From the NCBI GenBank assembly GCA_023819375.1, contig JAMWDI010000001.1, positions 107,685 to 171,684 of the forward strand: a DNA stretch of 64,000 bases, written 5' to 3'. Made by a program: the position numbers and the translations under genes. This document shows, one piece after another, positions 1-29,993 of this stretch. Numbering within the stretch: the first letter of the stretch is position 1; each line of letters opens with the position of its first letter. This DNA is from Candidatus Omnitrophota bacterium. GTDB lineage: Bacteria > Ratteibacteria > UBA8468 > B48-G9 > JAFGKM01. The notes below the pieces were generated by a model. It saw only the letters and a list, made by a program, of their open reading frames with translations, did no database searches and was not told where the DNA came from.

Positions 1-985
1 ATTTAAAAGTTCTCAAAATTAAAAACAACAAAAGTATAGAAGCAATATTTTTTACCTCTACCGGTATAAATTTACTTTGATGGTGGTGAATAACATTAAA
101 ATTATAATTAGAGTAAATTTTATCAATAATCAATCCGAAAATAATAGCCCACAAAATAATTGAGGATATATAAATTAAAAAATTTCTTTTACCAAATTTA
201 CCAAAAATAAAACTCAAAGTGACAGAATTTGTAGCAGGTCCCGCAAACAAAAAAACAAGACCTGCTCCTGGGGACATACCTTTTGATATCAACGAAGAAG
301 TAATTGGAATTGAACCAGTTGCACATACATACATAGGAATACTGATTATTAACATTAAAAAATAAGAAAACAACCTGTTGCCGAAATATTTCAATATTAT
401 ATTTTTAGGTATAAAAACTGAAATAAAAGCCCCTATAACAATACCAATTAAAATCCACTTACCTGTATCTTCAATTAATTCAAAAAATCCATAGTTAATC
501 ACTGTTTTTATTTTTTTAATTAACGATAATTTTTTAATCTCCTTATTGCAATTTTTACAAACTATTTTTTCTGAATAATGTTTCTTACTTTTATCAAAAA
601 TATTCACAATACTTCCTGCAAAAATTCCTGAAAAAAAAGAAGAGACAGGACGTATTATTGCAAAAACAGGACCCAAAAGTGAATAAGTTGCAAAAATTGA
701 ATCAATACCAGTTGTAGGAGTTGAAATTAAGAATGAAATTGTTGCTCCTTTACTTGCTCCCTCTCTATCCAGATGATTTGCAACAGGAATAACTCCGCAG
801 GAACACAAAGGGAGTGGAATACCAATAATTGCAGATTTTAAAACTGAACTTAAAGATGGTAATGACAAATAATTATAAATTTTTTCTTTTGGTATAATAA
901 TTTTCAAAATTCCAGAAATTAAAAAACCAAAAAGTAAATAAGGGCTCATTTCATTTAAAAGTCGCCAAAACTCAAAAAATAAATT
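1..985 (-). CDS. Permease, DUF318/ArsP-like family (partial; C-terminus lies beyond window start)
   Basis: Minus-strand ORF absent from the supplied track because it runs off the window edge. ATG at 985, 6 nt after the fur stop. Translation MIKNLFFEFWRLLNEMSPYLLFGF... is hydrophobic and multi-TM, with a PLCSCG motif typical of DUF318/ArsP permeases and an extra CKNC motif. Confidence 0.5.
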
Positions 986-14420: not shown

Positions 14421-16415
14421 ATGAAAAAAATAAAAGATTTAATTTTCTTTAGTTTCTGGATTTTTATTTTGCTTTTCCTTGGAAATTTAAATGGTTCTGA
14501 TACTTGGATTCCTGTAAAAGGAAAAGATTTATTTGTTCCAGGAGAATTTATTGTACAATATCGCCCAGAAAAAACATCTTTAACTGAAATTAAAAGTTTT
14601 TTTATTTCCAAAAATTTAGAGATAAAAAAGGTAGGAGTATATGCTCCAATAGTTGTATGTAAAGGAAGAAATTTAGAAGAGGTCAAATCTAAATTACTTC
14701 CAAATCCAAATATTGTAAGTATAGAACCTAATTACATAGCATATTTACCAGAACCATGTTACTCTGGAGAACTTAAACAAAATGAAAATATTGAAATTTT
14801 AACTCAAACATCTGATTCGCTTTTATCATATCAGTGGGGATATTATAAAATATGGGCACACTTAACAAAAGATGTCCCTTCTAATGCTCCTACCATTGCC
14901 ATTTTAGATACAGGTGTCTGGTATGACCATCCTGATTTAAAAGGTAAAGTTATAAAAGGACCAGATTTTGTAAATGGAGACAATGACCCTCTTGATGACC
15001 ATGGACATGGAACTCATGTTGCAGGAATTGCTGCTGCTATATCAAATAATGGAATAGGAATTGCTGGAATTTCACCAAAAAGTAAAATTTATGCTGTAAA
15101 AGTTATAACTGCCCAAGGATGGGCAACATATGCAGATATTGTTGATGGTATTTATCATGTTTCAAATAGGTCTGATGTCAAAATTATTAATATGAGTTTC
15201 GGAGGGCCACATTCACAGATTCTTGAAAATATGATAAATTATGCATTCAGTAAAGGAAAAATATTAGTTGCAGCAGCAGGTAATGAAAATACTTCAATTC
15301 CTTCTTATCCTGCAGGTTATGACTGTGTAATTGCTGTTGCTGCTTCCGACGAATATGATTGGAAGGCAGATTTTTCAAATTATGGCAACTGGGTTGATAT
15401 TGCTGCTCCTGGTGTAGATATAATTTCAACAGTCCCTGGATATATTTATGGAATAGATTATGGAATTTGGGATGGAACTTCAATGGCTGCACCTTTTGTT
15501 TCAGGTGCCTGTGCAAGAATTCTTGCTCAATATCCAAATCTTACAAATATTCAAGTTGAACAAATATTAAAAAATAATGGAGATAATTTACCTCCGTTAA
15601 GATGGCCAGAAGGAACCAATTTCAAACGATTAAATCTTTATAAATCTCTGAGTGGAACTTCAAGTCCAGATGCTTCTGTAAGTGCTTATATTACAGATGC
15701 AATAACAGGACTTCCTCTTGTGGGAGCAAAATTCAGTGCCTATTTAGGGAATACACTGGTTGCTTATGATTACGTACCAGTTGAAGGATATTCTTTTTTT
15801 GTTATAGAAGATTTGGTTGAAACAGGAAATTATATTTTTAAAATTACAAAACCGAAATATGCTAACTTTCAAACTCCACCTAAAAATTTATCTTATGGAA
15901 GTAATTATTTAGGAATAATTCCTGTTCCACCTTCAACAGGAGGCTGGCAACTTGTTATATCTTGGGATATGACAGAAGAACTACCAGATTTTGATTTATA
16001 CTTATGGTTGCCTTCCTCTCAACCATACATTGTTGGACCAGAATTTCCAGGAAGTACCCGTTTCTTCCCTTGGGCAAGATATAATAGAGATTCTGCTCTT
16101 GATTATATACCTGTGGAATCAATAAGTGTCAAAAAAACTCTTCAAGGTACTTATACTATTGCTGTTTACAATACAGAAGGGGGAAATAATTTTAAAATTT
16201 CTAATATGCGTGCATTTATTTATTACAATAATAGTTTGAAATATATTATTGAAGCACAAAATGGTTTTGGAAATGGCACAGAAGATTGGTGGGTTATAGG
16301 TAGTTTTTCAGGTAGTACCTTTATACCTTTTAATTATTTTACAAATGAATGGCCAGGCCCTTATAATTTGAAACATAAATTCTCAATACAGAAAAAAGAA
16401 AAAATTATAAAATAG
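14421..16415 (+). CDS. Secreted subtilisin-like serine protease (peptidase S8) with C-terminal extension
   Basis: 664 aa. N-terminal signal peptide; catalytic triad motifs AILDTGV (Asp), HGTHVAG (His), GTSMAAP (Ser); about 250 aa of additional C-terminal domain. Confidence 0.9.
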   Translation: MKKIKDLIFFSFWIFILLFLGNLNGSDTWIPVKGKDLFVPGEFIVQYRPEKTSLTEIKSFFISKNLEIKKVGVYAPIVVCKGRNLEEVKSKLLPNPNIVSIEPNYIAYLPEPCYSGELKQNENIEILTQTSDSLLSYQWGYYKIWAHLTKDVPSNAPTIAILDTGVWYDHPDLKGKVIKGPDFVNGDNDPLDDHGHGTHVAGIAAAISNNGIGIAGISPKSKIYAVKVITAQGWATYADIVDGIYHVSNRSDVKIINMSFGGPHSQILENMINYAFSKGKILVAAAGNENTSIPSYPAGYDCVIAVAASDEYDWKADFSNYGNWVDIAAPGVDIISTVPGYIYGIDYGIWDGTSMAAPFVSGACARILAQYPNLTNIQVEQILKNNGDNLPPLRWPEGTNFKRLNLYKSLSGTSSPDASVSAYITDAITGLPLVGAKFSAYLGNTLVAYDYVPVEGYSFFVIEDLVETGNYIFKITKPKYANFQTPPKNLSYGSNYLGIIPVPPSTGGWQLVISWDMTEELPDFDLYLWLPSSQPYIVGPEFPGSTRFFPWARYNRDSALDYIPVESISVKKTLQGTYTIAVYNTEGGNNFKISNMRAFIYYNNSLKYIIEAQNGFGNGTEDWWVIGSFSGSTFIPFNYFTNEWPGPYNLKHKFSIQKKEKIIK

Positions 16416-16424
16416 TTTTGAAAT

Positions 16425-17630
16425 TTAAGAAGTTATTTTATATTTTTTCAAAACACCTATTTCTGGTAATTTCCCAACAAGTGGTTTTGCATATTCAATA
16501 AATTTTTCAGTTACCCAGTTCCCTTCTACATTTATGAACTCATCTGGCATACTCCTTGTCTCTTTTGCAACACTTTCAAGAGGAACAAGTTCATAATAAA
16601 CTTTATATTTTTTCCCTTTTTCTCTTTTTATTGAAACAGAACCACTTTCATATTTTCCAACTGCATATTTCACTGCAAGTTCACCAACTTTATATGCTTC
16701 TTTTACATCAACCTCTGAATAAATTCCTGGAAAAGATCTCTGTAAATATCCAAATGTATCTGCTCTAACTCTACTTATTTTAAGTTCTCTCCTAACCAAA
16801 TCAGCAAGCAAGTCACCTAAAGCACCTGTTCCACTTAATTGAATATTTCCATGAGAATCAACTTCTTTTGTAAATTTTGCAACAATAGGTTCACCCTTTT
16901 CATCTGCAATACCTTCTGAAACAGCAACGAGACATCTTCCATATTTTTTATAAACTTCATCAACATCCTTTAAAAATTTCTCAACAATAAAGGGTCTTTC
17001 TGGAAAATAGATTAAATGAGGAGCATCATCCTCATAAATTTTTGCCAATGCACTCGCAGCAGTTAAAAATCCTGCGTGTCTTCCCATAATAACATCTATT
17101 TTAACGCCTGGAAGTGATTTGTTATCAAGATTATCGCCAATTATAGCCATAGCAACAAATTTTGCTGCAGAGCCATATCCTGGTGTATGGTCATTTTCCT
17201 TTAAATCATTATCAATTGTTTTAGGAATATGAAAACATTTAAATTCATAACCAACCTTTTTTGCATTTTCATTTAAAATATAAGCAGTTTCTGCTGAATC
17301 ATTTCCACCGATATAGAAAAAGTATCTTATATTATATTTCTGCATATTTTTAAAAATTTCTTCACACTCCTCTTCAGTAGGTTTTTTTCTTACACTTCCA
17401 AGAGCAGCACAAGGAGTATATGCAACCTTTCTCAAATCAGAAATCCTTTCTTTTCTTAAATCAATAATATCTCCCTGCAAAATGCCTTTTATTCCAAACA
17501 ATGAACCATAAATTCCCTCTATTTCTTTATGTTTTTTTGCTTCTAAAATTGCTCCAACTAAACTCTGATTTATCACAACAGTTGGTCCTCCACTTTGTGC
17601 TATTAACATATTTCCTTTCAATTTAGCCAT
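16425..17630 (-). CDS. pfp: 6-phosphofructokinase, probably pyrophosphate-dependent type
   Basis: 401 aa PFK fold (GGPTVVIN, PKTIDNDL, MGRHAGF). GGNDS in place of the ATP-type GGDGS suggests PPi dependence. Confidence 0.75.
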   Translation of the reverse strand: MAKLKGNMLIAQSGGPTVVINQSLVGAILEAKKHKEIEGIYGSLFGIKGILQGDIIDLRKERISDLRKVAYTPCAALGSVRKKPTEEECEEIFKNMQKYNIRYFFYIGGNDSAETAYILNENAKKVGYEFKCFHIPKTIDNDLKENDHTPGYGSAAKFVAMAIIGDNLDNKSLPGVKIDVIMGRHAGFLTAASALAKIYEDDAPHLIYFPERPFIVEKFLKDVDEVYKKYGRCLVAVSEGIADEKGEPIVAKFTKEVDSHGNIQLSGTGALGDLLADLVRRELKISRVRADTFGYLQRSFPGIYSEVDVKEAYKVGELAVKYAVGKYESGSVSIKREKGKKYKVYYELVPLESVAKETRSMPDEFINVEGNWVTEKFIEYAKPLVGKLPEIGVLKKYKITS

Positions 17631-17652
17631 TAAAAACCTCCTTTTAATAAAA

Positions 17653-17681
17653 ATTATAACATAAACTGCAGAAAAATTGAA
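17653..17681 (-). promoter_or_regulatory. Putative promoter for the phosphofructokinase gene
   Basis: Minus strand: TTCAAT (17681..17676), 17-nt spacer, TATAAT (17658..17653), then AAGGAGG Shine-Dalgarno before the ATG at 17630. The -35 lies in the first copy of the tandem repeat. Confidence 0.4.
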
Positions 17682-17716
17682 AGTTTTCTTTAAAAAATTG
17701 AAAGTTTTCTTTAAAA
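17675..17716. repeat. Perfect 2 x 21-bp tandem direct repeat (AATTGAAAGTTTTCTTTAAAA), each unit a near-palindrome
   Basis: Read directly: 17675-17695 and 17696-17716 are identical. Each unit is TTGAAAG-TTTT-CTTTAAA, with the arms matching as an inverted repeat at 6 of 7 positions. In the PFK/GGDEF divergent intergenic region. Confidence 0.8.
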
Positions 17717-17726
17717 GAGGTATTAT
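17698..17726 (+). promoter_or_regulatory. Promoter for the GGDEF gene (TTGAAA, 17 nt, TATTAT); near-leaderless
   Basis: TTGAAA at 17698-17703 (inside the second repeat copy), TATTAT at 17721-17726, ATG at 17736, so a predicted leader of only a few nt and no Shine-Dalgarno. Confidence 0.4.
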
Positions 17727-17735
17727 ATCTTTTAA

Positions 17736-18980
17736 ATGGAGGAAAGAAAATTAATAATAAGATTGAGTGAAATTTTATTATTTATAGTATTTACTACTGT
17801 TCTATTTTATGCTTTTGCTTTTTCTGAGCCTTTAAAACCATTGAAATTAATTTTAAAAGAGATGTTGCCCTCCTTAGGAATTACTCTGTTTTTTCTTTTT
17901 TTATGTTTTAGAACTATTGAATACTATCATAATCAGATTTTAAAACAAAAAAAATTGAATGAGGAATTAAACGATTCTTTATTCAAATTAAGTTCAGATT
18001 TAAAAATTGAGAAACTGCTTCAAAATTCACTTGAAATTCTAATGAAGTTTTACGAAGGAGATATTGGAATATTATCAATAATTGGGGATGATCTAAAAAA
18101 ATTTGTTTCGACAGATGTAATTACAATAAACATTAATAATAAGTCAAATATTGAAAGGTTTGAAAAAAATAAAAATTGTGTTTATGTGACAATTTCGCCA
18201 GATAAAATTTCGGTTAAAGAAGAAAATTTAATAAAAAAATTAATTAATGAGTATGGATTACAAAGTTGTATGGGTATAATTGTTTTTCCCATTTATACAG
18301 AAAAAGTGACAAAAGCAATAGGTATTATAGGGATTTACAAGAAGAAAAAGAAAGAAATTTTAAGAGATATTAGTAAAATCAAAATAATTAGTGAAGTTTT
18401 TATGCAACATTTAAATCTTGAAATTGAAAATTCTCTTTTAAATGAAAAATTGAATTATGCTTCAATAACAGATGCTTTAACAGAAGTTTATAACAGAAGA
18501 TATTTTAATATAAGATTGAAAGAAGAATTTGCAAGAGCAAAAAGAGAGGGATATCCTGTCTCAATAATGATTTCAGATCTTGATAATTTCAAAAAATATG
18601 TTGATACTTATGGCCATCCTATGGGAGATATTATTTTAAAAGAACTTGCCAATTTACTTAAATATTCTATCAGAGAAACAGACATACTTTGTAGATTTGG
18701 TGGAGATGAATTCGCTTATATTCTACCTTTTACTCCAAGTAAAGAAGCCCAGATAGTTGCAGAAAGATTAAAATCAAATGTAGAAAACTATAGATTTTTG
18801 AAAGAATATATAAATGATAAAGATGTAAAATTAACATTAAGCATTGGAATTGCAACTTTTCCAGAACATGGAAATACTGAAGAAGAAATTTTGTCAAAAG
18901 CAGATAATGCTCTTTTTCAAGCAAAAAATATAGGAAAAAATTTAGTTATAGTTTATAGTGAAAATGGAGGAACAAAATGA
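17736..18980 (+). CDS. Diguanylate cyclase (GGDEF domain) with N-terminal membrane/sensor region
   Basis: 414 aa. N-terminal TM helices, central sensor-like region, C-terminal GGDEF domain with RFGGDEF active-site motif. Confidence 0.85.
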   Translation: MEERKLIIRLSEILLFIVFTTVLFYAFAFSEPLKPLKLILKEMLPSLGITLFFLFLCFRTIEYYHNQILKQKKLNEELNDSLFKLSSDLKIEKLLQNSLEILMKFYEGDIGILSIIGDDLKKFVSTDVITININNKSNIERFEKNKNCVYVTISPDKISVKEENLIKKLINEYGLQSCMGIIVFPIYTEKVTKAIGIIGIYKKKKKEILRDISKIKIISEVFMQHLNLEIENSLLNEKLNYASITDALTEVYNRRYFNIRLKEEFARAKREGYPVSIMISDLDNFKKYVDTYGHPMGDIILKELANLLKYSIRETDILCRFGGDEFAYILPFTPSKEAQIVAERLKSNVENYRFLKEYINDKDVKLTLSIGIATFPEHGNTEEEILSKADNALFQAKNIGKNLVIVYSENGGTK

Positions 18981-19540
18981 TCAAGGAAATTCCGTTACTT
19001 TTATATTTGAATTCACTAACTTTTATAATTTGGATAATTACAACTATTCTTTTCAGAATTAAAAAAGTAAAAGGATTTGTTGCATTAATTCTATCATTGA
19101 TATTTACATTTTTTGTTTTTTATTATAATTATCTCATTTTGTTTGAAAAACCAACCTTACAAAGTTTTGAAAAATATGAAAATATGGGAAAAATAATTTT
19201 AAAACCACGAGTTGAAGAACATAAAGAAAGCCCTGAAATTTTTCTATTTGTAAAAATAAATGATAGTGTAATTAAAATAGGACTTGGTGATGAAATTGAA
19301 ATCAAAAAAAATACTACTTTTACAATTGAAGATGTTGAAGGAATTGATAAAGAAAATTTAAAAGTAAATTTTGTTGGTTTTGTTGGAAATCAAAAATATA
19401 ATGATGGTCAAGATATTGGATATAAAATTAATTATAAAGATTTGAGAAAAAATAAAGCAATTGAAAAGGATAAATATGAAATTGAGATTAAAAAGAAAGA
19501 TAAAAAAATTGGATCTGTTTTCGTTAAATTTGTAGATTGA
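18977..19540 (+). CDS. Hypothetical membrane-anchored protein
   Basis: 187 aa. Two N-terminal hydrophobic helices then a Lys/Glu-rich soluble domain. ATGA overlap with the GGDEF gene. No recognisable family. Confidence 0.4.
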   Translation: MIKEIPLLLYLNSLTFIIWIITTILFRIKKVKGFVALILSLIFTFFVFYYNYLILFEKPTLQSFEKYENMGKIILKPRVEEHKESPEIFLFVKINDSVIKIGLGDEIEIKKNTTFTIEDVEGIDKENLKVNFVGFVGNQKYNDGQDIGYKINYKDLRKNKAIEKDKYEIEIKKKDKKIGSVFVKFVD

Positions 19541-19541
19541 A

Positions 19542-20450
19542 ATGGTTTCTTATCTTATGTTAGAGTTGTCTGAAATTGAAAAACGTTCTTTTTTGCTTTT
19601 TGAAAAGTTGAAAAATTGTAATTTATGTGGTTGGGAATGTAATATTGATAGATATTCTAAAAAATCTCATTGCAGAAGTGGGATTGAACTTAAAATTTCA
19701 AGTTATGGACCACATTTTGGAGAAGAAAGGATAATTTCTGGAAAAAGAGGATCAGGAACCATATTTTTCACAAATTGCTCATTAAAATGTGTTTACTGTC
19801 AAAATTATGATATAAGCCAACTTGGAAATGGATATGTAATTTCAGAAGAGGATCTTTCAAATATAATGCTTAAATTACAAAATTTAGGATGTCATAATAT
19901 TAATCTTGTCACACCAACTCATTTTTTGCCTCAGATTTTAAAGGGAATTTTTCTTGCAATAAAAAAGGGCTTGAAAATTCCATTTGTGTATAATTGTGGC
20001 GGATATGAAAATGTAGAAACACTAAAAATTCTGGATGGTATAATTGATATTTATATGCCAGATGCAAAATATGGAGATAACGAAAAAGGTAAAAAATACT
20101 CTGGAATCCCTGATTATTGGGATAAATGCAAAAGGGCCTTGATTGAAATGAAAAGACAAGTTGGAGATATAGTTTTAAATGAAGAAAAAGTTGCAATAAA
20201 AGGACTTTTAATAAGACATCTTATTCTTCCAAATGATATTTCCTCAACAGAAAAAGTTTTAAAATTTATTAAAGAAGAACTTGGTGAAAATACCTGGATA
20301 AGTTTACTAAGTCAATACCATCCTGAATATAAAGCCTATATGTATCCAGAAATAGATAGAAGAATTACTTACGAAGAATATTATAAATCTGTTGAAATTG
20401 TTGAAAAAATTGGTTTGAAAAATGTTATTTATCAGGGATTTTTAATATGA
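19542..20450 (+). CDS. Radical SAM protein, PflX/COG1313-like (putative activating enzyme)
   Basis: 302 aa. CxxxCxxC radical SAM motif (CSLKCVYCQN), N-terminal Cys cluster (CNLCGWECN), ISSYGPHFGEE block. Confidence 0.55.
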   Translation: MVSYLMLELSEIEKRSFLLFEKLKNCNLCGWECNIDRYSKKSHCRSGIELKISSYGPHFGEERIISGKRGSGTIFFTNCSLKCVYCQNYDISQLGNGYVISEEDLSNIMLKLQNLGCHNINLVTPTHFLPQILKGIFLAIKKGLKIPFVYNCGGYENVETLKILDGIIDIYMPDAKYGDNEKGKKYSGIPDYWDKCKRALIEMKRQVGDIVLNEEKVAIKGLLIRHLILPNDISSTEKVLKFIKEELGENTWISLLSQYHPEYKAYMYPEIDRRITYEEYYKSVEIVEKIGLKNVIYQGFLI

Positions 20451-21118
20451 AAAAAAGCATAATTATAAGTTTTGAAGGTATTGATGGTTGTGGAAAAACG
20501 ACAATTGTTAAAAAATTTTATAAATATTTAAAAAAGAAAAAATTAGATGCAATAGTTCTTCACGAACCAGGTTCTACGCATGTTGGAGAAAAAATAAGAA
20601 GAATTTTACTTAATAAAAATATAAGCATAAACAAATACTGTGAATTATTTCTATATCTGGCAAGTAGAATACAATTAATTGAAGAAAAAATTAAAAAATA
20701 TTTTGACAAAAATAAAATTATTATTTTAGATAGATACATTGATTCTACTTTTGCCTATCAAGGATATGGAAGAAAAATCCCATTGAAATTTATTGAAAAA
20801 ATACACAAAAAACTTATTTCTCCAAAATTTATTCCTGATATTACATTTTTAATTGATGAGAAACCAGAAAACTTAATAAAAATTCTTAAAAACAAAAAGG
20901 CTGATAGAATAGAAAAGGAATCTATTGAATTTCAGAAAAGAGTAAGAAAGGGGTATTTAAAACTTGCAACGAAAAACAAAAGGATCAAAATAATAAGAAG
21001 AGAAGATGAAGAAACAACTTTTAAAAAAGTTTTAAAGGAATGGGAGACTTTCTTAAATGAAAACAGAGGAAATAAAAAAATTTTTTCTAAAATCAAAGGA
21101 AAAAAACAGAATATTTAA
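20447..21118 (+). CDS. tmk: Thymidylate kinase
   Basis: 223 aa. P-loop FEGIDGCGKTT, DRY-like block LDRYIDS, lid region. Confidence 0.85.
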   Translation: MKKSIIISFEGIDGCGKTTIVKKFYKYLKKKKLDAIVLHEPGSTHVGEKIRRILLNKNISINKYCELFLYLASRIQLIEEKIKKYFDKNKIIILDRYIDSTFAYQGYGRKIPLKFIEKIHKKLISPKFIPDITFLIDEKPENLIKILKNKKADRIEKESIEFQKRVRKGYLKLATKNKRIKIIRREDEETTFKKVLKEWETFLNENRGNKKIFSKIKGKKQNI

Positions 21119-21908
21119 TGCATATATAATTTATGGGGGGAACAAAAAAGAAAGAGAAGAAATTGCTCTTTTTTTTGCTGGTGTTTTGAATTGTAAAAAT
21201 GAAAATTACTGTGAAAGTTGTGAAAATTGTAAAAAAATAAAAAATAAAAGCCATCCAGACATAAGATGGGTTATTCCAGAAAAAAGCATTCTTTCAATTG
21301 ATGATGTGAGGGAAATCAAAAAAGATCTTTTTATTCAGCCATATTCAGGTAAATATAAAATTTATATTTTTCAAATTGAATATATAAAAGAAGAAGCAAG
21401 CAGTGCTTTTTTGAAAATTTTAGAAGAACCACCTCCTTATGGAATTTTAATTCTTCTTGTTCCAAATATAAATTTCCTACTTCCCACAATTATTTCAAGA
21501 TGTTTTAAAATTTATTTAAATTATAAATTACCAGATTATAATAAAGAAATGGAAAAGGCAAAAGAAGAATTCTGGGAACTGATAAAAGATGTTGAAAATA
21601 AAAATTTCTTTGATTTTTTCAAAAAAATAGATTTTATGAGCAAAAACAAAGAAAGAGAAGAAGTGGAAAAATGGATAGAGGATATATTGTATTACATAAG
21701 AGATTTATTTTTACAACTGAATAATTTCCCTCAAAGTTTTTTAATAGATAAAAATTTAAAGAATGAAAAACATTGGACCTTTGAAATTTCTTTAATAGAA
21801 AAGATATGGAATATAAAACAAAGAATAAGGTATAATATAAACGTAAAACTTGCACTGGAAAATATAGTATTTCAAGTTATTTTAAATAGTTTAAAATTTG
21901 ACAAATAA
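21057..21908 (+). CDS. holB: DNA polymerase III delta-prime subunit
   Basis: 283 aa. AAA+-like N-terminus (NAYIIYGG), Cys-rich zinc module (CKNENYCESCENC), typical position after tmk. Overlaps tmk by 62 nt; start uncertain. Confidence 0.7.
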   Translation: MKTEEIKKFFLKSKEKNRIFNAYIIYGGNKKEREEIALFFAGVLNCKNENYCESCENCKKIKNKSHPDIRWVIPEKSILSIDDVREIKKDLFIQPYSGKYKIYIFQIEYIKEEASSAFLKILEEPPPYGILILLVPNINFLLPTIISRCFKIYLNYKLPDYNKEMEKAKEEFWELIKDVENKNFFDFFKKIDFMSKNKEREEVEKWIEDILYYIRDLFLQLNNFPQSFLIDKNLKNEKHWTFEISLIEKIWNIKQRIRYNINVKLALENIVFQVILNSLKFDK

Positions 21909-21911
21909 AAT

Positions 21912-21995
21912 GCCGAAGTGGCGGAATGGAAGACGCGCCAGGTTCAGGACCTGGTGAGGTAAAACCTCGTAGGGGTTCAAATCCCCTCTTCGGCA
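21912..21995 (+). tRNA. tRNA-Leu (anticodon CAG), class II with long variable arm
   Basis: Manual cloverleaf: acceptor GCCGAAG/CTTCGGC, D-stem GCG/CGC, anticodon stem CCAGG/CCTGG with loop TTCAGGA (anticodon CAG, G37), variable arm TGAGGTAAAACCTCGTA, T-arm AGGGG-TTCAAAT-CCCCT, discriminator A. No encoded 3' CCA. Confidence 0.8.
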
Positions 21996-22006
21996 ATAAT
22001 TAATTT

Positions 22007-23389
22007 CTAACAATCTTCAAAAGTAAAACCTCTTTTGAAAATTTTTAAAGTTTTCTTTACGACTTCGCCATCATAAAGTATATTAGAATTATTTTTTATT
22101 TCTTCCAATGCTCTTTCCAGTAAAAGTTTTGGTCTATAAGGTCTATGAGAACTCATTGCCTCAACAACATCTGCAACAGACAGAATTCTTGATTCCAAAA
22201 TAATCTCTTCACCCTTCAATCCAAACGGATATCCACTACCATTTAATCTTTCATGATGTTGAATAATAATCTTAGCGATATCCCATGGAAATTCTATATT
22301 TTTAACGATATTAGCACCATATTCAGGATGCATTTTTATAAAATCCCATTCAATATTATTTAATTTACCAGGTTTGGCAAGAATATCTGTTGGGATATAA
22401 ATTTTTCCTATATCATGTAACAAAGAAACAATCTTCATTCCTTCAATCAAACTCCCTGAAAATCCTAATTCTTTTGCAATTTCTACTGACAATTTTGCCA
22501 CTCTTTTTTGATGATTAAAAGTATATGGATCCCTTTGTGTTAACGTTTCAGACAAAGCCATCACTGCTTGATTTAACATCCTTTTTGTACTATTTATAGC
22601 CTCCCTCAAATTTTCAATCATCATTTTCCTTTCGGTAACATCTCTAAAACATAATAGAATACCTTCTTCATTAATAAAATTAATTTTTTTCCCTATTGTT
22701 TCTATAAAAAATCTTGCTCCTTTACTATCTCTTATTTCATGTTCTATAAAATAACCACTTTTATTTTTATTTACAAGTTTCAGATTCTGCTCAAATTCTT
22801 CTTTATTTATAATAAAATCAAAAAGATTTTTTCCGATAAAGTTTTCAACTTTATCATACCCAAATAAATTTGCTCCTATAAAATTTGAAAAAAGAACCCA
22901 GCCTTCTTTATCAATAACGACTATTCCATCAAGAAGTGTTTCTGTTAAAATCTTATATTTCTCTTCAGATTCTTTTATTTTCAAAAAAGAAACTTTTTCC
23001 TCTGTAATATCTCTTACTATTGCTACTCTTAAAGTTTTATCTTTATATTTAATATTCTTAACTTTAACCTTAAGAATAATTTCCAAGCCATCCTTTCTGG
23101 TACATCTTGTCTCAAATTCGCCTTCCTTTTCTTCTTTTAATATTTCCAACCAAAAATTTTTTTCACTTTCACTACATAAATCCCATATTTTTTTCCCAAT
23201 TATCTCATTTTTCTCATATCCAAAAATTTCTGCATATTTTTCATTGCAATATATAATTTCTCCTCTATAATTAATACTGAACCCCTCTCCAATCATCAAA
23301 CATATATTTTTCAAAATTTCATTATTTAAAAACCCCTTCTCTATTTCTTTTCTCAATATTTCTAACTCATCTTTATTATTCTTTTTCAT
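22007..23389 (-). CDS. PAS-domain sensor with HD-GYP domain (putative c-di-GMP phosphodiesterase)
   Basis: 460 aa. Two PAS-like regions, C-terminal HD domain (LLHDIGK) and HHERLNGSGYP HD-GYP signature. Confidence 0.8.
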   Translation of the reverse strand: MKKNNKDELEILRKEIEKGFLNNEILKNICLMIGEGFSINYRGEIIYCNEKYAEIFGYEKNEIIGKKIWDLCSESEKNFWLEILKEEKEGEFETRCTRKDGLEIILKVKVKNIKYKDKTLRVAIVRDITEEKVSFLKIKESEEKYKILTETLLDGIVVIDKEGWVLFSNFIGANLFGYDKVENFIGKNLFDFIINKEEFEQNLKLVNKNKSGYFIEHEIRDSKGARFFIETIGKKINFINEEGILLCFRDVTERKMMIENLREAINSTKRMLNQAVMALSETLTQRDPYTFNHQKRVAKLSVEIAKELGFSGSLIEGMKIVSLLHDIGKIYIPTDILAKPGKLNNIEWDFIKMHPEYGANIVKNIEFPWDIAKIIIQHHERLNGSGYPFGLKGEEIILESRILSVADVVEAMSSHRPYRPKLLLERALEEIKNNSNILYDGEVVKKTLKIFKRGFTFEDC

Positions 23390-29182: not shown

Positions 29183-29213
29183 AAAAATATAAAAGAAGAA
29201 AGGAGGTGAAAGA

Positions 29214-29588
29214 ATGAAAAAAAATAAAAAGAAAGGTTTTACTTTGATTGAATTGATGACAGTGGTAATTATTGTTGGAATTTTAGCGTCAGTTGCTGTT
29301 CCTCTTTATAGAGGACAAGTCAAAAGAGCAATGGCAGCAGAAGGAGCAGCATTACTTGGTTCTGTAAGAACTGCTGAAAGAGTCTATTATGCTGAACATG
29401 GAAAATATACAGATGATAAAACAAAACTGGGGATAGATACAACTGGAAACAAATATTTTAAAGATTATACGATTACACTTACAGGTGGAGGCACTGGATT
29501 TATCGCAACAACAACTGGAGAAGGAGATGCTGCAGGAATTACTGTATCCATTGACCAGGATGGAAATTTAACTTATTCTGGAATTTAA
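29214..29588 (+). CDS. pilA: Type IV major pilin (copy 1)
   Basis: 124 aa. Leader MKKNKKKG then FTLIELMTVVIIVGILA (class III signal, Glu at +5); small Gly/Thr-rich C-terminal domain. Confidence 0.85.
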   Translation: MKKNKKKGFTLIELMTVVIIVGILASVAVPLYRGQVKRAMAAEGAALLGSVRTAERVYYAEHGKYTDDKTKLGIDTTGNKYFKDYTITLTGGGTGFIATTTGEGDAAGITVSIDQDGNLTYSGI

Positions 29589-29608
29589 ATTAAAGGGAGG
29601 GACAAAAA

Positions 29609-29983
29609 ATGAAAAAAAACAAAAAGAAAGGTTTTACTTTAATTGAGTTGATGACAGTGGTAATTATTGTTGGAATTCTTGCTGCTATTGCTGTTCCTCT
29701 TTATAGAAGCAATGTCAAAAGAGCAATGGCAGCAGAAGGAGCAGCATTACTTGGTTCTGTAAGAACTGCTGAAAGAGTCTATTATGCTGAACATGGAAAA
29801 TATACAGATGATAAAACAAAACTGGCAGTAGATACAAGTGGAAACAAATATTTTAAAGATTATACGATTACACTTACAGGTGGAGGCACTGGATTTGTCG
29901 CAACAACAACTGGAGAAGGAGATGCTGCAGGAATTACTGTATCCATTGACCAGGATGGAAATTTAACTTATTCTGGAATTTAG
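29609..29983 (+). CDS. pilA: Type IV major pilin (copy 2, tandem paralogue)
   Basis: 124 aa, same architecture as copy 1, own AGGGAGGG Shine-Dalgarno, TAG stop instead of TAA. Confidence 0.85.
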   Translation: MKKNKKKGFTLIELMTVVIIVGILAAIAVPLYRSNVKRAMAAEGAALLGSVRTAERVYYAEHGKYTDDKTKLAVDTSGNKYFKDYTITLTGGGTGFVATTTGEGDAAGITVSIDQDGNLTYSGI

Positions 29984-29993
29984 AAATAAAAAT

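Follow-up and report, generated by a model that had tools for sequence, protein, structure and literature searches.

Between two genes transcribed away from each other, in the DNA of an uncultured bacterium, a 21-bp sequence is found twice, head to tail and without a single mismatch. The question raised by this locus is what such an array represents: a pair of operators recognised by a regulator, as held in an earlier note on the same DNA, or the trace of a mutational event. The data presented below indicate that the 42 bp are probably, though by no means certainly, a young and lineage-specific tandem duplication of the core of a compact divergent sigma-70-type promoter, which would have provided each of the two opposed promoters with a private hexamer at its −35 position. 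Throughout the text "the window" designates the whole stretch of DNA that was analysed, which is 64 kb (64,000 nucleotides) long and has a G+C content of 27.8%.

The repeat and the genes on either side

Two copies of AATTGAAAGTTTTCTTTAAAA are indeed present back to back, as had been reported in the earlier note, and both are perfect (Table 1). Tandem Repeats Finder places the array at 17672-17716 (period 21, 2.1 copies, 100% matches, score 90), and shifting the register by the AAA that precedes copy 1 yields two segments, 17672-17692 and 17693-17713, that are likewise 100% identical. No other perfect tandem duplication with a period between 12 and 40 is found in the 64 kb; in 100 shuffles that preserved dinucleotide frequencies, such duplications occurred with a mean of 0.04, the longest period being 13 and none reaching 18 or more. 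When a degenerate form of the unit, AATTGAAAKWTTTYTTDAAAA, was scanned across the genome-contig collection, what appeared among the matches listed were single chance matches in unrelated genomes.

Table 1. Features of the repeat, of the two promoters and of the transcription units that they face (window coordinates)
Feature	Position	Strand	Remarks
PPi-dependent 6-phosphofructokinase (PFK) gene	16425..17630	-	Monocistronic, 401 aa; NF010675, 485.9 bits (cut-off 273)
PFK Shine-Dalgarno, GGAGG	17637..17641	-	CCTCC in all orthologs; alignment shift of 1-3 columns in several
PFK -10, TGTTATAAT (TATAAT plus extended -10 TG)	17653..17661	-	TG unique to this lineage
AAA microhomology	17672..17674	.	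Also ends each unit, giving a 45-nt array of 2.1 copies
Copy 1 of the 21-bp unit	17675..17695	.	Extra with respect to all sampled relatives; gap of at least 22 columns in 11/11 orthologs
PFK -35 position, TTTCAA on the minus strand	17677..17682	-	3/6 match to TTGACA; 18 bp from the -10
Copy 2 of the 21-bp unit	17696..17716	.	GGDEF-operon promoter: -35 hexamer and spacer nt 1-13
GGDEF-operon -35 hexamer, TTGAAA	17698..17703	+	Promoter scan and 11/11 orthologs
GGDEF-operon -10 hexamer, TATTAT	17721..17726	+	9 nt before the ATG at 17736
Five-gene operon, frames overlapping or abutting	17736..21908	+	Same gene order in relatives

The repeat lies, in agreement with the earlier description, between two divergent genes, PFK (16425-17630, minus strand) and GGDEF (17736-18980, plus strand), which leave between them a spacer of 105 bp (17631-17735). 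The phosphofructokinase is of the reversible, PPi-dependent type, and the plus-strand operon encodes, in addition to a membrane GGDEF diguanylate cyclase (TIGR00254), a 187-aa protein, a radical-SAM protein, thymidylate kinase and the δ′ subunit of DNA polymerase III. The promoter on this side thus drives a mixed operon that goes beyond GGDEF alone and includes housekeeping replication genes. The regulatory link between glycolysis and c-di-GMP synthesis that had been read into the locus is not supported, and among the reasons are the presence of thymidylate kinase and DNA polymerase III δ′ in the promoter's operon and the reversible, PPi-using nature of the phosphofructokinase.

To place the locus among its relatives, full-length orthologs of the GGDEF protein (59-71% protein identity) were collected and the surrounding DNA was retrieved for eleven distinct ones (L083/L084, L085, L086/L087, L088, L209/L210, L211/L212, L213/L214, L215, L216, L217 and L003). 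All these relatives are uncultured bacteria carrying Omnitrophica/Ratteibacteria labels, and the sources of the identical GGDEF protein and of its relatives are metagenome-assembled genomes (MAGs) named "Candidatus Omnitrophica bacterium" and "Candidatus Ratteibacteria bacterium". A search of metagenome contigs with the GGDEF alignment returned 80 loci, mostly generic GGDEF domains, with about eight full-length relatives; among the loci of this search, the PFK neighbour is kept in L003 only.

The wider neighbourhood is more variable. In this lineage only, a gene for a 664-aa S8 subtilisin-like peptidase (14421-16415) is interposed between PFK and a TtuA/TtcA-like tRNA thiolation gene; an ATP_bind_3 gene directly abuts PFK in L083, L085, L211 and L215, and a DsbD-like gene takes the place of the peptidase gene beside PFK in L086, L209, L213 and L216. 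The radical-SAM gene of the operon (19542-20450 in the window) is absent in L085, L211 and L217, in which the gene for a 187-190-aa protein is followed directly by that of thymidylate kinase. Downstream, a tRNA-Leu(CAG) gene (21911-21996) separates the end of the GGDEF operon from a convergent PAS-PAS-HD_5 gene (22007-23389, minus strand), which is of the HD-GYP type and encodes a probable c-di-GMP phosphodiesterase; the same PAS/HD_5 neighbour is found in L211. Farther away, at 29209-29990, two adjacent 124-aa genes make up a 395-bp tandem repeat (2.0 copies, 94% identical); they encode type IV pilin-like proteins with an N-terminal KGFTLIELM motif and represent a recent gene duplication within a larger plus-strand gene cluster.

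A −35 position common to two back-to-back promoters

PFK is divergent from the GGDEF operon in all eleven relatives, whose spacers measure 70-93 bp, as opposed to the 105 bp of the window. Each of the 11 contains a single copy of the unit, in the form AATTGAAA[G/T/A][T/A]TTTTTT.AAAA, and in the alignment of the 12 spacers the extra copy of the window appears as one clean gap of at least 22 columns in every relative. Since 11/11 relatives are single-copy and the gap is clean, the tandem state must be derived and specific to this lineage; which copy is called new is arbitrary, as either copy 1 or copy 2 could be regarded as the extra one. The aligned spacers are 65-79% identical between lineages, compared with 46-60% at the fourfold-degenerate sites of the adjacent PFK gene, which are essentially saturated, and this difference indicates that the spacer is under constraint. 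Furthermore, the two copies being identical at 21/21 positions while neutral sites have diverged, the duplication must long postdate the divergence from the closest relative sampled.

The constraint has a recognisable form. The block AAAAATTGAAA is strongly conserved, and the elements follow one another in a fixed order, CCTCC, ATTATA-16..18-TTGAAA-16/17-TAnnAT-6..10-ATG, the ATTATA spacing holding in 10/11 relatives. Because one and the same hexamer is found at −35 distance from both −10 elements, two back-to-back promoters share a single −35 position in these 10/11 relatives. Read on the plus strand this shared hexamer is TTGAAA, on the minus strand TTTCAA; an A run borders it on one side, a T run on the other. 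These non-hexamer parts of the unit, the A run before TTGAAA and the T run after it, are also conserved, and would occupy the position of the upstream A tract of each promoter in turn, an arrangement that would account for the rough symmetry of the unit.

Regarding the plus strand, the assignment of copy 2 as the −35 element of GGDEF proved sound: a consensus promoter scan recognised TTGAAA-17-TATTAT at this copy, a 10/12 match to sigma-70, and the corresponding layout, TTGAAA-16/17-TAnnAT, is present in 11/11 orthologous spacers. The GGDEF operon therefore has a predicted sigma-70-type promoter, with both hexamers at a distance within 16-18 bp and conserved in the orthologs. The ATG follows the −10 by just 6-10 nt in the orthologs, so that the GGDEF-operon mRNA is predicted to be leaderless or nearly so, and no Shine-Dalgarno sequence precedes the GGDEF ATG in the orthologs. 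A riboswitch or leader RNA was considered and rejected, since the two leaders would measure only some 0-3 nt and 17 nt, respectively; Rfam applied to 17300-18100 gave only a sub-threshold sxy match (22 bits vs a gathering score of 70).

Promoters of similar appearance are found elsewhere. Four distant GGDEF orthologs that do not have PFK upstream (L004, L010, L011 and L012) display, by eye, TTGnnn-17-TAAnAT located 6-7 nt before the ATG; indeed, the −10 ends 6-10 nt before a conserved ATG in every ortholog, these four (35-50% identity) included. Five other intergenic regions of the window contain, again by eye, TTGACA-16/17-TAnnAT with similar A/T-run spacers, which suggests that this type represents the ordinary promoter form of the organism. 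The motif TTGAAA-N16-18-TAnnAT is not significantly enriched in the window (12 observed vs 7.3 ± 2.8 expected).

The minus-strand promoter is less canonical. Its TATAAT is located at 17658-17653, and the corresponding plus-strand ATTATA is invariant in 12/12 sequences; this conserved −10, upstream of a Shine-Dalgarno sequence and an ATG, points to a putative sigma-70-type promoter for PFK. The attribution of the PFK −35 to copy 1 is correct as far as position is concerned, the hexamer being 18 bp from TATAAT, but not as far as the consensus is concerned: TTTCAA matches at 3/6 positions, no −35 with a match of at least 4/6 exists at 16-18 bp, and on this strand the consensus scan returned no promoter. 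The distance between ATTATA and TTGAAA, 18 bp in the window, is 16-18 bp (mostly 17) in 10/11 relatives; it was scored in nine of them (8/9 at 16-18 bp) and read from the alignment for L216 and L217. The PFK promoter may rely mainly on its TG-extended −10, in which case sharing a −35 may matter little. At 17659-17671, between the PFK −10 and the hexamer, the T/A run of the relatives is replaced by ACATAAACTGCAG; with it came CTGCAG, a G+C-rich palindrome, and one inserted nucleotide, to which the TG of the extended −10 and the spacer length of 18 bp are due.

Within this layout the duplication has a precise geometrical consequence. In the window the hexamer of copy 1 (17682-17677) is located 18 bp from the PFK −10 and that of copy 2 (17698-17703) 17 bp from the GGDEF −10, so that each −10 now faces a hexamer of its own; the two hexamers are 21 bp, i.e., two helical turns, apart, and the distance between the two −10 elements rises from about 46 bp to 68 bp. 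The possibility that the duplication had created a second tandem promoter was discarded, as no −10-like hexamer is found 16-18 bp past the TTGAAA of copy 1, the sequence at 17 bp being GAAAGT. A hexamer for each promoter has also been attained in L215, by a different route: its spacer (L215:2147-2222) contains a perfect 17-bp palindrome, AATTGAAATTTTCAATT, so that both promoters find a complete TTGAAA 17 bp from their −10, one per strand. Among the scored loci, L215 alone has a full minus-strand TTGAAA at 17 bp from the PFK −10.

Origin of the second copy and competing explanations

The proposed sequence of events starts from an ancestor-like state in which one hexamer would have occupied the −35 position of both the PFK and the GGDEF-operon promoters. 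The A runs on either side of the unit would then have allowed slipped-strand mispairing, by which the hexamer and its flanks were copied once; thereafter copy 1 would serve PFK and copy 2 the GGDEF operon, the shift by 21 bp, or two helical turns, leaving the rotational phase unaltered. A slipped-strand origin fits the data, since the copy is perfect and head to tail, AAA is found at both borders and the relatives are single-copy. On the other hand, neither a transposon target-site duplication nor an att site is a suitable candidate, nothing being present between the copies and 21 bp being, by this reasoning, too long for a typical target-site duplication.

As to the consequences, two RNA polymerases would no longer compete for the same 6 bp, and PFK and the GGDEF operon may interfere less with each other at their promoters. 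This expectation is drawn by analogy with other systems in which overlapping divergent promoters interfere with each other, a bound RNA polymerase occluding the other site (Bendtsen et al. 2011, PMC3167631). The strength of the coupling in the relatives is uncertain, the PFK −35 matching at just 3/6 positions, and the effect of the duplication on transcription could be nil.

The duplication is seen in one population, represented by two assemblies that agree over 7.2 kb. The second of these, assembled independently within Logan (run SRR21619497), reproduces the 42 bp and matches the window without a difference along 7,245 bp; it derives from the same population and is not a second strain. The repeat is therefore not the artefact of one assembler.

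The most serious competitor accepts the same duplication of promoter DNA but attributes to it no meaningful effect, the second copy being a transient product of neutral slippage destined to be lost or to decay. That the copies are perfect, just two, confined to one population and flanked by microhomology is what such an event would leave behind; in addition, no new complete promoter has arisen, as seen from the GAAAGT at 17 bp from the TTGAAA of copy 1, and the spacers between −10 and hexamer stay legal (18 and 17 bp). Yet the spacer is otherwise constrained, both in sequence (65-79% vs 46-60% identity) and in length (70-93 bp in 11 lineages), so that 21 bp inserted into its core have probably not been wholly without effect, and a length of 21 bp, which keeps the helical phase, fits either tolerance or selection. 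None of these points is decisive, and wholly neutral slippage, although the less favoured reading, retains an appreciable minor share of the probability.

Less likely still is the reading of the earlier note, according to which each 21-bp unit is a dyad operator and a dimeric transcription factor, bound to the adjacent sites, co-regulates PFK and GGDEF. Several features seem to invite it: the units are identical and cover both −35 positions at a mutual distance of exactly two helical turns, the AAAAATTGAAA block is strongly conserved, and the divergent PFK-GGDEF arrangement is maintained in 11 relatives. The imperfect inverted repeat that had been described, TTGAAAG-TTTT-CTTTAAA, is also present inside each unit, with 6/7 positions complementary, but it does not rise above the level expected by chance from base composition. 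In fact, 7-4-7 inverted repeats with at most one mismatch number 230 in the window vs 294 ± 16 in shuffles, being rarer than expected, and in the same register the dyad has 2-3 mismatches in 7/9 relatives scored, the G...C positions by which it is improved in the window changing without compensation. A hairpin or cruciform was likewise rejected, the DNA fold z-scores (−0.34 and −0.07 for the plus strand, +0.30 for the minus strand) being no better than those of shuffles.

The design with two operators is, moreover, not the conserved state, as a single unit is found in 11/11 relatives, and the hexamers of the two promoters, −35 and −10, together with the A/T runs, suffice to account for all the blocks that are conserved. 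No gene for a DNA-binding, HTH-type regulator was recognised among the 17 flanking genes scanned, and no further copy of the 21-mer was found in the 64-kb window at two or fewer mismatches, the lone extra match at up to three mismatches (a 3-mismatch one) being located inside the GGDEF coding region. With single-copy relatives and a dyad that is at chance level, unconserved and without a tendency to fold, the existence of two operators for a dimeric regulator is improbable; a regulator recognising the single conserved unit may exist, but nothing requires it.

A useful term of comparison is offered by tetO1/tetO2 of the tetR-tetA system, which are strong palindromes, conserved as a pair and located beside the regulator gene. 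The present locus resembles it in having two similar sites side by side over divergent promoters, but differs in that its dyad does not exceed chance, its relatives lack the pair and no regulator gene adjoins it.

A third inverted site was also considered. The 10 nt with which the repeat register opens, AAATTGAAAG, are found in inverted orientation in codons 3-6 of PFK (17615-17624), about 0.4 such matches being expected by chance, according to our estimate, in the region that was searched; this copy, which belongs to the MAKLKG codons, is perfectly complementary to both units. It is not conserved, the orthologs reading AAATTAAAAG and others, and the match is probably a coincidence.

It is very improbable that the 42 bp constitute a contingency (phase-variable) repeat, whose 21-bp copy number would toggle at high frequency between the shared and the separate −35 state. 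The repeat is perfect, head to tail and within a combined divergent promoter, and a precedent is provided by the divergent hifA/hifB genes of Haemophilus influenzae, in which, as van Ham et al. (1993) are said to have found, the length of a TA tract varies among cells and changes the −35/−10 spacing. Both cases thus have a repeat in a combined promoter region that touches two divergent units. Unlike that dinucleotide tract, however, the repeat of the window consists of a 21-bp unit present only twice, with the same copy number in both assemblies of the one population, with legal spacings and with no repeat in any relative.

Finally, an assembly or sequencing artefact, to which an AT-rich, low-complexity region (G+C 27.8%) might be prone, can be practically dismissed, since two assemblies produced by different software agree base for base and a typical sequencing read is longer than the 42-bp array.

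Related systems and biological meaning

Taken as a recent duplication of a promoter core, the 42 bp bring together an event and an element that are both of familiar types. As an event, it is like the microhomology-mediated tandem duplications of bacterial intergenic DNA, with its perfect head-to-tail copies, AAA borders and single-copy relatives; it is unlike generic slipped-strand duplications in that the unit is a promoter core and spans two helical turns exactly, the slippage itself being the putative mechanism. As an element, it is like the back-to-back divergent sigma-70 promoters (PMC3167631, PMC13644379), in which opposed promoters share an element within one short conserved spacer, torS/torT being a documented bidirectional promoter with a shared element (PMC13644379). 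The difference is that torS/torT and the bidirectional promoters of the Warman type share the −10, whereas here it is the −35 position that is shared, and that has been duplicated in this genome, as deduced from sequence.

A more general proposal concerns the clade as a whole. The shared −35 might tie PFK to the GGDEF/tmk/holB operon, transcription of the one excluding that of the other, and the present lineage might have escaped this bond by a two-turn duplication, as L215 might have done, in a similar manner, by its palindrome. We offer this proposal tentatively, as it is more likely to be wrong than right.

What the locus teaches with greater assurance is that a perfect repeat with an apparent dyad, however eye-catching, is not necessarily an operator when the DNA is AT-rich; here the comparison with relatives has recast the repeat as a dated mutational event in a well-defined promoter. 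For an uncultured Omnitrophica/Ratteibacteria-like lineage this provides a clear promoter architecture together with a conserved operon start that is predicted to be leaderless. If the effect of the duplication is real, the locus would represent a small natural rewiring of promoters, in which a slippage of 21 bp uncouples a divergent promoter pair with one −35 position in common; and, should the proposal made for the clade be true, this lineage and L215 would together form a natural series on how overlapping promoters are resolved.
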